Part shown: one piece after another, positions 16,336 through 20,641 of the stretch
Layout of the letters: each line of letters begins with the position of its first letter
Position numbering within the stretch: the stretch's first letter is position 1
NCBI RefSeq assembly: GCF_041504555.1
Contig: NZ_CP126499.1
Reading direction: 5' to 3' (one strand)
DNA length: 40,000 nt
Origin: Fervidobacterium islandicum
Lineage (GTDB): Bacteria; Thermotogota; Thermotogae; Thermotogales; Fervidobacteriaceae
Position numbers and translations under genes: made by a program
The notes under the pieces: generated by a model
Seen by the model: the letters and a program-made list of their open reading frames with translations, nothing else
Database searches by the model: none
What the model was told of the DNA's origin: nothing

Positions 16336-16487
16336 CTTATCATCCTCCCTCATAGAAGTTGTGGAACTTTGCTTGTCCTGACAGAATTTAGTGAGCCCGC
16401 AAGCTACTCTCCTTCAGGGAAGTAGTAGGGGCTTGCACTTTTCAAAGTTTTTCAAAGTATGTAGTACAATTGTATGGGGTGATTGGT

Positions 16488-16877
16488 ATGCAGCTGCGAA
16501 AAACTCGATGGAGTAAATACAACCTGAACTATCATTTTGTTTGGATACCTAAATACAGAAAACCTATTTTGGTCGACAATGTTAAAGACGAACTTCAAAA
16601 GATTATCCACTCTGTTGCTAAGAGCCACCACATTACTGTTTTGTCGCTCTCTACCCAGCCAGACCATGTTCATCTATTTGTCTCTGCTCCACCAAGATTA
16701 TCCCCAGCGTCAATTATAAACTTATTTAAGGGTGTGTCATCTAAAAAGTTGCTGGAAAAATTCCAACATTTGAGAACGAAAGACGGATTATGGAGTAGAA
16801 CTTACTACGTTGGAAGTGCAGGAACTGTATCTGAAGAAACTATCAGGAGGTATATTGAGGAGTGTCAAAACATATAG
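16488..16877 (+). CDS. tnpA: IS200/IS605 Y1 (HUH) transposase TnpA
   Basis: YNLNYHFVWIPKYRKPIL, HUH motif PDHVHLFVS, C-terminal RRYIEEC tyrosine. Start at MQLRKT after GGGGTGA. Confidence 0.9.
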   Translation: MQLRKTRWSKYNLNYHFVWIPKYRKPILVDNVKDELQKIIHSVAKSHHITVLSLSTQPDHVHLFVSAPPRLSPASIINLFKGVSSKKLLEKFQHLRTKDGLWSRTYYVGSAGTVSEETIRRYIEECQNI

Positions 16878-17860
16878 TCAGGACCTACAAAGTGCCTGTT
16901 CCTGTTGAGTTCTATTCCCTGTGCAATGAGTTGAACCAAACCGCCGCAAGAATATACAACAAAACACTCTCGCTTGTGCAAAAGCTCAAGCGCAAGAAGG
17001 GTTTCTGGCTTTCTGAGGGCAGTGCTCAAAAGTTCATCTTGCGCTGGGCTAGTGGAACTAGCATTCATACACACTCAAAACAAGCGTTTGTTCAGCAGTA
17101 CTTCCAAGCCCTTAATAGCTACTTTTCAGCCAGCAAAACAAACCCTAATGCAAAACCACCATACAAAACGAAGAAGTTCATACCATTCATCTGGAAAGAT
17201 ACCGCAGTCAAGCTCCTGCCAGATGGTAGGTTAAAGCTTTCCTTAGGGAAAGATAGAGACCCTCTAGTTGTTCAGACAACTCTACCATCTGGTACAAAGA
17301 TTAGGCAAGTTAAGTTGGTCTACAAAATGGGCAAATACTACCTTCACCTTGCGATAGAGGTGAAGATTGGAGAAAGTGAAACGAAGGGTACAAAAGTTGT
17401 ATCGGTAGACCTTGGCATACTCCGTCCTATCACATATTTTGATGGTGAGAAAGTGGTGTCTTACCATGGTGGAGCGCTCAACAGTCTGATACGCTACAGA
17501 AACAAAGAACTTGCAAAAATCCAAAGCGCGATGAGCAAGTGCAAAAGAGACTCGAGAAGATACAAGAAACTTTCAAGAGCAAAAGCCAAACTACTGCTGA
17601 GGATAAAGAATCAACTTAACGATGTTCTCCACAAGATAACGAGCCACTTTATAGGCACATGCTTCAGAAGCGGAGTTAAAACAATCGTGATAGGTGATGT
17701 CACAAACATTCGAGAAAGTGTTCAAGGAAACGACAACGCAATGCAAAAAGTGCTTCAGTGGTGCTTTAGACGAATAACAAATCTCATAACATACAAAGCA
17801 AAGATTCATGGAGTCAACCACCCACCACTTAAGTGGCGGGCTTGTAAAAGCCATGGTTGA
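16862..17860 (+). pseudogene. tnpB: tnpB (IS605 OrfB) N-terminal fragment, truncated by insertion
   Basis: IVRTYKVPV start typical of TnpB. RuvC-I VVSVDLGILRP. The family-like sequence ends near YKAKIHGV (about 17815) and then reads into unrelated sequence up to a stop. Confidence 0.8.
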
Positions 17861-18050
17861 CTACCCTCAGCCAGGACCGAAAGGTCACCGGACTACGTTA
17901 GGTGGGTCATGGCACCATGGAATGCTGCTCAAGTCCCATGCTCTGCCGTCTGTCATTAAACAGTCCTAATGGGTAGGGACAGTGTGGCAGACTTAAAAAG
18001 CCTACCTAACATTGGGGATGAGCACATAACTCCGAAAGGAGGCTTACCGC
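17861..18050 (+). ncRNA. Candidate IscB omega-RNA scaffold
   Basis: About 190 nt of GC-rich non-coding sequence immediately 5' of iscB, with many local complementarities (for example CCATGGTTGAC...GTCATGGCACCATGG). It ends in the iscB SD GAAAGGAGG. IscB omega-RNAs are known to be encoded at this position. The 5' end may extend into 17816-17860. Confidence 0.45.
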
Positions 18051-19343
18051 ATGGTATTCGTGATTTCAAAAGATGGAAAACCACTTATGCCAACTAAAAG
18101 GCATGGAAAGGTCAGAAGACTCTTAAAGCAAGGACTGGCAAAGGTAGTAAAAAGAGAACCGTTCACCATCCAGCTTTTGTACGAAACAACAAACTATACG
18201 CAACCTGTTACCGTTGGAATAGACACAGGCTCTAAGGTTGTAGGTGTATCTGCCGTCACTGACAAAGAAGAAATATTCTCTGCAGAAGTCCAGCTTAGAC
18301 AAGATATCAAAAAGTTACTACTTGAGCGCAGGCAACATAGAAGGTTCAGAAGATACAGAAAAACAAGGTATCGAAAACCCAGATTTCTGAACAGACGGAA
18401 GAAAGATGGTTGGTTGCCACCGAGTTTGCAGTGGAAAGTAGATGCTCATGTGAGAATCATCAACAAACTTGGTAAGATAATACCGATAACAAAAGTCGTT
18501 GTGGAAGTTGCACCGTTTGATATTCAAAAAGTACAAAATCCAGACATAGAAGGAAAGAACTACCAAAACGATCCGCAGAAAGGATTTAGCGATGTAAGAG
18601 ATTACTGCCTTTGGAGAGCTGGATACAAATCTGAGCTATCTGGAAAAACTGGCATATTGGAAGTCCACCATATCATTCCAAGAAGCGAAGGAGGTACTGA
18701 TACACCGAGCAATTTAATAGTGCTAACAACACAAGAACACAAGATGTTGCACGAAGGCAAGATAAAGATACCTAAATCAAGATTAGAGCAAATAAAGGTG
18801 TTTAAGGACGCGGCTCACGTTTCAACGATTGGGTGGCACATAGTCAACAAACTCAGGCAAAACTACCATGTCGAAATCACGTATGGTAGTATTACAAAAG
18901 AAAGACGGGACATGTATGGACTTGAGAAGTCGCACAGAGATGATGCATTTGTGATAGCTGGTGGGAATATTCAAGAAAGAGCAAGCGAATGGTACTTCGG
19001 TAAATTCTTCAGGCGACAAAACAGGTCGCTTCACAAAGCCAATCCGATTAAGGGCGGGAAAAGACCAATTAATACAGTTAAGCAAGTGAATGGGTTTAGA
19101 AGGTTTGATAAAGTTGAGTGTGAAGGCAAAATAGGAATTATATCAGGCTTAAGAAGTAGTGGGTACTTTTCGATAAGTAGTCTTAGTGGAGAAAAGATAA
19201 GTGACAGTGTAAAGTATACAAAATTAAGGCTACTTGAGAGAGTCAAGACACTGATGTTCGAAAGGAGGGAAAGGGCTACTTGTTCATGGCTAAAGCCATG
19301 TGTGTCCGCAGCCCGGTTTCATGAAAGTAGAACTGATTTCTGA
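18051..19343 (+). CDS. iscB: IscB (PLMP-RuvC-HNH RNA-guided nuclease of IS200/IS605 elements)
   Basis: N-terminal KDGKPLMPT (PLMP domain). RuvC-I VGIDTGSKVVG. Arg-rich bridge helix RRQHRRFRRYRKTRYRKPRFLNRR. RuvC-II VVVEVAPFD. HNH EVHHIIPRSEGGTDTPSNL...HKMLH. RuvC-III SHRDDAFVIAGG. The last roughly 7 codons probably read across the insertion junction into tnpB sequence. Confidence 0.8.
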   Translation: MVFVISKDGKPLMPTKRHGKVRRLLKQGLAKVVKREPFTIQLLYETTNYTQPVTVGIDTGSKVVGVSAVTDKEEIFSAEVQLRQDIKKLLLERRQHRRFRRYRKTRYRKPRFLNRRKKDGWLPPSLQWKVDAHVRIINKLGKIIPITKVVVEVAPFDIQKVQNPDIEGKNYQNDPQKGFSDVRDYCLWRAGYKSELSGKTGILEVHHIIPRSEGGTDTPSNLIVLTTQEHKMLHEGKIKIPKSRLEQIKVFKDAAHVSTIGWHIVNKLRQNYHVEITYGSITKERRDMYGLEKSHRDDAFVIAGGNIQERASEWYFGKFFRRQNRSLHKANPIKGGKRPINTVKQVNGFRRFDKVECEGKIGIISGLRSSGYFSISSLSGEKISDSVKYTKLRLLERVKTLMFERRERATCSWLKPCVSAARFHESRTDF

Positions 19344-19593
19344 GAGCTACACGAGCAAAACGTGTCCTGTATGCGGACAGGAAAACGGGCCAAAGGGCCG
19401 CAGATACAAATGCACGAATTGTGGGTTTGAATATCACAGGGACGGAGTAGGTGCAATAAACATCTACAAAAGGTACCTTGGCTATGGCCAAGTAGTAGCG
19501 GGATTGGCACCCGTCGCAGGCGTTAGGTACGCTCCTCACCTGCGTAGCCATGGAGTTAAAACATCTCCATGGAAGGTAGCCTCGAGCTACTAA
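19321..19593 (+). pseudogene. tnpB: tnpB C-terminal fragment (RuvC-II, zinc ribbon, RuvC-III)
   Basis: KVELISESYTSKTCPVCG...YKCTNCGFEYHRDGVGAINI matches the canonical TnpB C-terminal core. It continues the sense of the 16862-17815 fragment. Confidence 0.8.
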
Positions 19594-19672
19594 GAATCCC
19601 ATCCCCTTCAGGGGATTGGGAGTGTCAAACAAACCAGCGAGTTAGATGTTAGCTAATAAATGCAAAAGATGT

Positions 19673-20641
19673 CTACCATGGGCGAATCTTAAAACCTACA
19701 ACAGGAATGACATACTTATCTGCCTTCATCTGTATCAGTGATGGTCTTGAGAAGGCTTCCACCAAGACTTTCACTGGAAGATCGTTGACTATCAAACCCC
19801 AACAACTCATCTTTCGAAACCATTGCTCGTGGGAAAACAACACATTGCCACTGATGACCGAATATGAGTTCGGAGCATGCAAATGCGACACACAGGGGGC
19901 ACTATTCAAGGCAGCGAACTCGATTTCTCCAAACATTTCGGAAATCTCAGGACGGTTAAACTGTTCCGGAAACTCAAAATGCGCAATTTCCCGGTTGAGT
20001 TCATGGACACCCGCAATTTCGTAATCCAACTTGATGCCGTATAGTAATCTGTACAAACCATAACTTATACACCTAAGAGGTGTCATATGCAAATTGCTGT
20101 ACTTGCCGTTGACCTCATACATGAGATGCTTTAGACAATAGGCTGAAATGAAAGGTACGTTAAGTACGGCATCGCGTGACTTGATTCCTCTGAGCGAGCC
20201 TTGTAAATCATCGAATACAACGATATCTCCTAAGCCTGCGAGAGAAATGAGAGAAGTGCTATATTCAGTACTACCGTTCTTAGCCCTAAGCTGAAGAGAA
20301 CTGCATAACAAATCGAGAGGCACGTACTCATTCTCCAACTTCTTAAGCCACTCAGCACTCTCATTATCAACACGTTCTAAAGTGAATATCCAGCCGTCTT
20401 TCCGCACCACCCATCCTTCCGATATACACAACGTGACCTCTTGTTCAAGCTCTGGAATCGACACATCTAAAATGAATAATGGCCTGCCTCTGACGGCTAA
20501 GATCATTGGCTTTTCTGAATGCCGAGATCTCCAGTTTCTCCTGTACCTGAGGTATACGTTGGTCATTCTCAACGTAAAATAATCCCCATAGTTCTTCCTC
20601 ACTCTGACCAGTTCACCCATAAGCTTTGCGAAGCTTCCCAT
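19673..20641 (-). CDS. Hypothetical protein (about 322 aa)
   Basis: Long ORF. Start at MGSFAK (ATG 20641), 6 nt after GGGAGGTG. No recognisable motif. A spot GC count of about 42% in one 60-nt line compares with about 28% in a csm5 line. Confidence 0.55.
   Translation of the reverse strand: MGSFAKLMGELVRVRKNYGDYFTLRMTNVYLRYRRNWRSRHSEKPMILAVRGRPLFILDVSIPELEQEVTLCISEGWVVRKDGWIFTLERVDNESAEWLKKLENEYVPLDLLCSSLQLRAKNGSTEYSTSLISLAGLGDIVVFDDLQGSLRGIKSRDAVLNVPFISAYCLKHLMYEVNGKYSNLHMTPLRCISYGLYRLLYGIKLDYEIAGVHELNREIAHFEFPEQFNRPEISEMFGEIEFAALNSAPCVSHLHAPNSYSVISGNVLFSHEQWFRKMSCWGLIVNDLPVKVLVEAFSRPSLIQMKADKYVIPVVGFKIRPW

Follow-up and report, generated by a model that had tools for sequence, protein, structure and literature searches.

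An IscB element inside a tnpB gene

A stretch of 40,000 nucleotides from Fervidobacterium islandicum was analyzed (the window; positions 1573061-1613060 of the complete 2.19-Mb genome, labelled G000). We conclude with high confidence that it carries two elements of the IS200/IS605 superfamily of insertion sequences (IS), one nested within the other: a non-autonomous IscB element lies within the tnpB gene of an outer element that encodes tnpA and tnpB. Open reading frame (ORF) prediction combined with a Pfam scan revealed on the plus strand tnpA, a 332-amino-acid OrfB_IS605 ORF, a 430-amino-acid RRXRR/HNH ORF and a 97-amino-acid zinc-ribbon ORF ending at 19593; the insert has the same orientation as tnpB. 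A first-pass annotation of the sequence had listed tnpA, a split tnpB, a structured RNA leader and IscB between 16380 and 19630, and had read them as a nested insertion. All of these parts were found by Pfam and Rfam matches far beyond chance, the span proved essentially right (an alignment of six copies of the outer element gives 16383-19628), and the nested reading was supported. The two findings named beforehand as speaking against it, tnpB halves that do not join and a conserved single-gene architecture, were both not observed.

Features of the nested elements in window coordinates (LE and RE, left and right end in transposon terms; TAM, transposon-adjacent motif)
Feature	Position	Strand	Description
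TGAC motif	16379..16382	+	Immediately 5' of outer left end; likely target/TAM; conserved in six copies
Outer IS200/IS605-family element (tnpA, tnpB)	16383..19628	+	3246 bp as found, 1738 bp minus insert; ends from six-copy alignment
tnpA	16488..16877	+	Intact Y1 (HUH) transposase; Pfam Y1_Tnp PF01797, E 2e-39, profile positions 2-120 of 121
tnpB 5' fragment	16862..17812	+	317 codons; RuvC-I Asp, Gly at canonical RuvC-II Glu; OrfB_IS605 E 2e-17
Presumed guide template	17797..17812	+	16 nt of tnpB directly before the scaffold; placed by known IscB architecture
Non-autonomous IscB element	17813..19320	+	1508 bp; top strand in transposon terms is window minus strand; RE 17813, LE 19320
Omega RNA scaffold (HEARO, RF02033)	17813..18030	+	cmscan 161.3 bits (gathering 83), E 3.4e-35, model 1-211 of 211
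iscB	18051..19343	+	Open, 430 amino acids; RRXRR E 5e-70, HNH E 4e-7; last 7 codons and stop in tnpB DNA
LE hairpin	19285..19300	+	Perfect 6-bp stem, 4-nt loop, within iscB 3' end; candidate TnpA-binding hairpin
ATGAA (TTCAT on minus strand)	19321..19325	+	IscB-element target motif/TAM; also Met-Lys codons of restored tnpB
tnpB 3' fragment	19321..19593	+	90 codons and stop; zinc ribbon, RuvC-III HRD; Cas12f1-like_TNB E 2e-16

The two halves of tnpB form one gene

Two uninterrupted paralogues of tnpB with 75-80% DNA identity are present in the same genome, and their proteins span the break point uninterrupted. The 5' fragment is colinear with them as far as ..KIHG and the 3' fragment from ..MKVELISESYTS on. 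The joined TnpB comprises 407 amino acids and was aligned gap-free at the junction to both paralogues and to orthologues from other genera, which is the continuity expected from the first-pass annotation. Furthermore, deletion of exactly 1508 bp restored the spacing between the matches to the two halves, which is 13 nt for the paralogue and 108 nt in genome G037, where three copies were matched.

The 5' part of tnpB joined to an IscB part was found in none of 40 related genomes searched. This comparison bears on the proposal that tnpB and iscB form a conserved dual-nuclease locus into which nothing was inserted, a proposal for which the co-orientation of the two genes speaks. It can practically be dismissed: all other examined copies of tnpB are uninterrupted, the IscB module is found alone elsewhere (in four other contexts in G000), and a related genome provides an empty site, as described below. 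Moreover, zinc ribbon and RuvC-III are missing from the frame of the interrupted tnpB; the OrfB_IS605 RuvC core and the zinc ribbon lie on fragments 1508 bp apart and share a single frame only without the insert.

The insertion parts RuvC-I from the zinc ribbon and RuvC-III, and therefore TnpB cannot be produced. Comparison with a solved TnpB-like chain revealed Gly in place of the canonical RuvC-II Glu (IGD versus the typical xED) in tnpB of the window and in all aligned relatives; the catalytic D-E-D set of a typical TnpB is thus incomplete at its Glu. Probably, the insertion also separates the RuvC-I part from a substitute Glu. A conserved Ser-Glu pair occurs just before the YTS/zinc-ribbon motif and just past the insertion point; as a guess, it may supply this residue.

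The last 15 residues of the 332-amino-acid ORF are encoded by omega-RNA DNA. This chimeric ORF is also on record as two other variants with 97-98% identity, located on contigs of at most ~3 kb from JGI, ENA and Logan assemblies. Hence, related populations have the nested state as well, and an assembly artefact is ruled out. A misjoin induced by repeats, with the IscB element placed erroneously between pieces of tnpB, might be considered because the genome holds repeats of both element types; however, the copies are only 75-93% identical and thus too diverged to mislead an assembler, both junctions fit the end and target rules of the element to the base, and the identical junction ORF occurs in these independent assemblies, leaving such a chimera a negligible probability. 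The exact 22-nt junction pattern gave no match in metagenome or genome contig collections, from which records close to this genome may be absent, and in a metagenome scan seeded with the protein all relatives returned were intact tnpB genes with 71-76% identity.

The additional variants also bear on another interpretation, namely that the composite is a single autonomous 3.2-kb tnpA-iscB transposon which spreads among Fervidobacterium strains, either in one piece or through homing, driven by IscB, into uninterrupted copies of this IS. Apart from the intact tnpA and outer ends, the contigs of at most ~3 kb carrying the chimeric ORF would suit it, since a repeated element assembles separately at about this size. 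Yet the complete genome holds a single composite copy, and short contigs could equally represent the same chromosomal locus in related strains; we consider this interpretation unlikely. IscB is rarely linked to tnpA, and if true, the composite would represent a natural route for IscB to gain autonomy, in which an IscB with a guide encoded in tnpB sequence takes the place of the IS's own tnpB. We retain the simpler reading, a non-autonomous IscB element nested in an outer IS.

Ends and target motif of the IscB element

Four full copies of the IscB element that are 90-93% identical (A, the window copy, and B, C and D) and one miniature derivative were detected in G000, each with unrelated flanks. 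Such repeated occurrence in differing surroundings is the signature of a mobile element and not of a fixed gene architecture. All five copies begin with GTCAAC, and the element end is a (C/T)-rich stretch finishing in TC and followed by ATGAA. A single occupied site does not tell whether GTC or ATG belongs to the element. Copy D (G000:C1:766662-768157) separates the ATG of an ABC-permease gene from a preceding 5-nt spacer; in the empty site of the related genome G005, this ATG directly follows the spacer, which in turn directly follows the ribosome-binding site. The element therefore extends from GTC to ..TTTC, and ATGAA is host DNA. ATGAA adjoins all five copies, and ATGA(A) is located beside three diverged copies in two other species. 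Targets of IS200/IS605 elements are defined as a motif immediately 5' of the element end. The insertion point thus lies immediately 3' of the minus-strand TTCAT, between the codons for ..KIHG and MKVELI... Multiple copies, defined ends, a fixed motif, a relative's empty site and the lack of a target duplication characterize the IscB element as mobile. A search for further genomic copies had been suggested beforehand as a way to define both ends and the target, and the five copies together with the empty site yielded LE, RE and the TTCAT motif.

In the first-pass annotation, the restart of tnpB was placed at 19321, which is exact; the left junction, assigned to 17815, is located 3 nt further left at 17812/17813, since GTC belongs to the IscB element. 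With the boundaries originally assigned, GTC (17813-17815) would be a Val codon of tnpB, and the element would span 17816-19323, end in CATG and have its target in the left flank on the plus strand. The join would then likewise be in frame and gap-free (..KIHGVKVE..), and Val is as conservative a substitute as Met for the Ile found in relatives. We nevertheless regard this placement as very improbable: GTC heads all five copies whatever the flank, and in the HEARO model it pairs with GAC at 17858-17860 as the first stem. In the empty site of G005, the ATG is the start codon of the host permease, and the 5-nt spacer behind the ribosome-binding site has no room for GTC. Furthermore, ATA of the paralogues is one change away from ATG and two from GTC, and published IscB elements have the omega RNA at RE and the TTCAT TAM at LE.

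With the element placed at 17813-19320 in tnpB, several observations still weigh against the nested insertion as reconstructed here. All intact relatives encode Ile (ATA in the paralogues) where the restored tnpB has Met (ATG), and the ATG before insertion would follow from the target rule. The IscB copies are 7-10% different from each other, and the family may therefore no longer be moving in this genome. Finally, the ends of the IscB element are unlike those associated with any TnpA of this genome.

The LE hairpin was kept in copies C and D and occurs in a compensated form in copy B; it is a candidate binding site for TnpA.

The miniature derivative (G000:C1:481117-481382, minus strand) has a size of ~260 bp and retains only the first ~85 nt with the 5' stems of the omega RNA and the last ~180 nt with LE; it has landed in front of an ABC-permease gene, precisely between ribosome-binding site and ATG. 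The target ATGAA corresponds to a gene start encoding Met-Lys/Asn. Copy D and the miniature derivative both precede start codons in co-orientation, splitting the gene from its ribosome-binding site, and two copies in genome G008 (L042 and L043) probably do likewise. Additionally, a second, diverged IscB/HEARO family is present in three copies on the plus strand (G000:C1:320630, 695837 and 7650), with HEARO scores of 109-119 bits, ORFs of ~448-453 amino acids, one of them apparently frameshifted, and different right ends finishing in GGAGGTGA. A bias of the element top strands for the lagging-strand template, judged by genome GC skew, was considered as well; 4 of 5 copies of the first family and 1 of 3 of the second fitted, and this uninformative criterion was dropped.

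The IscB protein is intact and under purifying selection

A GGAGG ribosome-binding site is located 8 nt upstream of the iscB ATG. PF14239 (RRXRR, PLMP) spans residues 2-173 of the protein, and the PLMP domain and the arginine-rich bridge helix could be aligned to those of OgeuIscB. The catalytic residues of the split RuvC domain are all present, namely Asp of RuvC-I (D58), Glu of RuvC-II (E152) and His/Asp of RuvC-III (H295/D298). The HNH domain (PF01844) lies within RuvC and contains the catalytic His and Asn. In an alignment of 15 homologues D58, E152, H206, H207, N221, H230, H234 and D298 were invariant, and H295 was conserved to at least 90%. These domain matches and conserved residues corroborate the intact IscB proposed previously on the basis of PLMP, RuvC I/II/III, bridge helix and HNH histidines. 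The NCBI name given to these proteins is "RNA-guided endonuclease IscB".

The lack of the usual CxxC zinc knuckles in the HNH domain had been noticed before and raised the question of a subfamily. The zinc cysteines are absent in all homologues down to 58% identity and are retained at ~53% identity and in OgeuIscB; a cysteine-less subfamily exists indeed, comprising proteins from Fervidobacterium, Caldicellulosiruptor, Thermoanaerobacter, Caldicoprobacter, Sulfurihydrogenibium and Athalassotoga. This clade-wide absence identifies the loss of the cysteines, as judged from the alignment, as a trait of a thermophile clade and not as decay.

An open iscB gene was found in copies A, B and C; that of copy D is frameshifted near the start. 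Pairwise comparison of copies A, B and C gave a ratio of nonsynonymous to synonymous substitution rates (dN/dS) of ~0.10 at dS values of 0.2-0.3; the protein was therefore kept functional during divergence, and the copies are not recent duplicates. The ORF of copy A crosses the LE hairpin and stops 23 nt into tnpB DNA, hence its last seven residues are specific for this copy. In copies C and D, iscB also runs into the flanks; in copy B, it stops within the element.

Omega RNA and its guide template

The structured non-coding leader postulated upstream of iscB was identified by Rfam as HEARO RNA, and a genome-wide search returned the same score for this segment as the scan of the window. The RNA ends 20 nt before the iscB ATG on the same strand. 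Since the scaffold starts at RE of the element, the guide must be transcribed from the adjoining tnpB sequence; a guide length of 16 nt was assumed. The corresponding 16-mer occurs once in the genome at ≤1 mismatch, and the sequence after it is the scaffold instead of a TAM; therefore, the occupied locus is protected. Because the paralogous tnpB copies differ from the guide at 6 positions and also in the motif, they are not targets.

A HEARO-like RNA that scored below the threshold with 64 bits and starts with GTCAAC was found at G000:C1:2089662-2089944 (L045:263-545), directly upstream of a D-ornithine/lysine aminomutase gene. No iscB gene is located nearby, and the RNA is possibly a relic, or else an orphan omega RNA.

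The outer element and its surroundings

The tnpA gene had been predicted at 16488-16877, and the Y1_Tnp profile was matched there over its full length. Six copies of the outer element were compared, three from this genome and three from G037. Their similarity begins at or right after TGAC and the preceding bases differ; TGAC is likely the target/TAM. The right end terminates in GTCAA at 19628, and near both ends (~16399-16436 and 19598-19620) the sequence can form imperfect hairpins whose loops read TTCA. Neither tnpA nor the outer ends nor the 3' region of tnpB, where its omega RNA would lie, was touched by the insertion. An empty site for the outer IS was sought with the MoxR-side flank, which gave no match in 12 genomes of the same genus.

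The two paralogous copies of the outer element in G000 are located at G000:C1:964583-966291 and 124937-126294. In the former, tnpB is open and tnpA (G000:C1:965841-966179) is broken by stops and a frameshift; the latter has lost tnpA altogether.

The outer IS sits 29 nt upstream of the start codon of a MoxR gene on the minus strand (window 16353-16383) and 44 nt downstream of the stop codon of an orphan ORF of 327 amino acids, also on the minus strand (window 19628-19673). It separates the MoxR-VWA-cas10 genes from whatever formerly lay upstream. Strong minus-strand promoter-like sites within tnpA (16740-16713, 11 of 12 matches) face MoxR.

A much higher GC content of the composite as compared to the cas genes had been reported from single lines (55% versus 28%). 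This is an effect of spot counting: the GC content is 42.8% for the composite, 40.8% for the genome, 37.2% for the cas region, 51.8% for the omega RNA and 50% for the 3' end of tnpB with RE. GC-rich parts are only the structured RNA regions (50-52%), and GC content is therefore no sign of foreign origin.

Transposition and proposed mechanism

Three open Y1_Tnp genes exist in the genome; they fall into two tnpA-tnpB families, whose hairpins and flanking motifs differ from those of the IscB element. The TnpA of the outer element was considered as a candidate for moving the IscB element as well; the two elements differ in hairpins, end sequences and flanking motif (TGAC versus TTCAT). A second, unrelated tnpA-tnpB element of the IS605 family with different ends and hairpins is present in two apparently intact copies (G000:C1:643712-645392 and 1823161-1824856) and encodes a TnpB of ~440 amino acids.

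By analogy with the family, a Y1 TnpA acting in trans would have inserted the IscB element 3' of TTCAT by single-strand "peel-and-paste" transposition. The omega RNA would be transcribed together with the adjoining ~16 nt of tnpB. A promoter-like site was found just upstream of tnpA at 16441-16470, and read-through from this site plausibly accounts for transcription because no plus-strand terminator-like site intervenes. After excision, a complex of IscB and omega RNA would cut the rejoined tnpB site, where the guide match is followed by ATGAA, by the mechanism demonstrated for Geobacillus elements; recombination would then reinstate the IscB element at the cut site.

Significance and comparison with known systems

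Nesting of insertion sequences is commonplace, and both element types are already known. The locus is a clean, ordinary nested insertion of modest interest; our literature search found no described IscB element nested in tnpB. For annotation it explains a 332-amino-acid tnpB stump with an RNA-encoded tail, a 97-amino-acid zinc-ribbon stump and an IscB stop codon in foreign DNA. Furthermore, it provides base-exact ends and a TTCAT TAM for a thermophilic IscB family. This compact family of ~425 amino acids with an HNH domain devoid of zinc cysteines could be of interest when mining for heat-stable genome editors. The locus is also a natural example of an omega-RNA guide dictated by the landing site, which is here the gene of a rival RNA-guided nuclease.

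For IscB elements, a conserved RNA region upstream of iscB was described that is bounded by the transposon RE with the guide outside RE, and TTCAT located 5' of LE was shown experimentally to be the TAM of GstIscB/ISGst5 (Meers et al. 2023; 10.1101/2023.03.14.532601). The IscB element of the window closely resembles ISGst5 of Geobacillus stearothermophilus: both are IscB-only elements of the IS605 family with a HEARO omega RNA upstream of iscB bounded by RE and TTCAT 5' of LE, and the IscB element would, like ISGst5, need TnpA in trans. The RuvC-I Asp is at position 58 in both proteins (the residue mutated in dIscB), and the HH pair of the HNH domain, H206/H207 here, corresponds to H209/H210 of GstIscB. 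Unlike ISGst5, the element is found in a host of the phylum Thermotogota, its cognate TnpA was not identified in this genome, and one copy lies inside the tnpB of another element.

As compared to OgeuIscB (7UTN, 7XHT), the order PLMP, RuvC-I, bridge helix, RuvC-II, HNH and RuvC-III is the same (E 1e-50, residues 2-333). In contrast to OgeuIscB, which has the CxxC and Cys/His zinc ligands of HNH, IscB of the window and its clade lack them; furthermore, the C-terminal ~100 amino acids, the part that reads the TAM, remained unaligned, and the protein comprises 430 amino acids versus 496 in OgeuIscB.

The outer element shares with IS608 and ISDra2 the tnpA-tnpB layout, subterminal imperfect hairpins, insertion 3' of a short motif and the lack of a target duplication; it differs from them by the flanking motif TGAC and by its interrupted tnpB. 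TnpB branches with a rearranged RuvC-II site, in which Glu is replaced by Gly (RIIr), were described by Altae-Tran et al. 2023 (PMC10691335). Like these, the outer TnpB and its relatives have IGD; RuvC-I Asp, C4 zinc ribbon and RuvC-III HRD are all retained, and a Y1 TnpA accompanies these proteins. Judged by these motifs, the outer TnpB fits the RIIr type.

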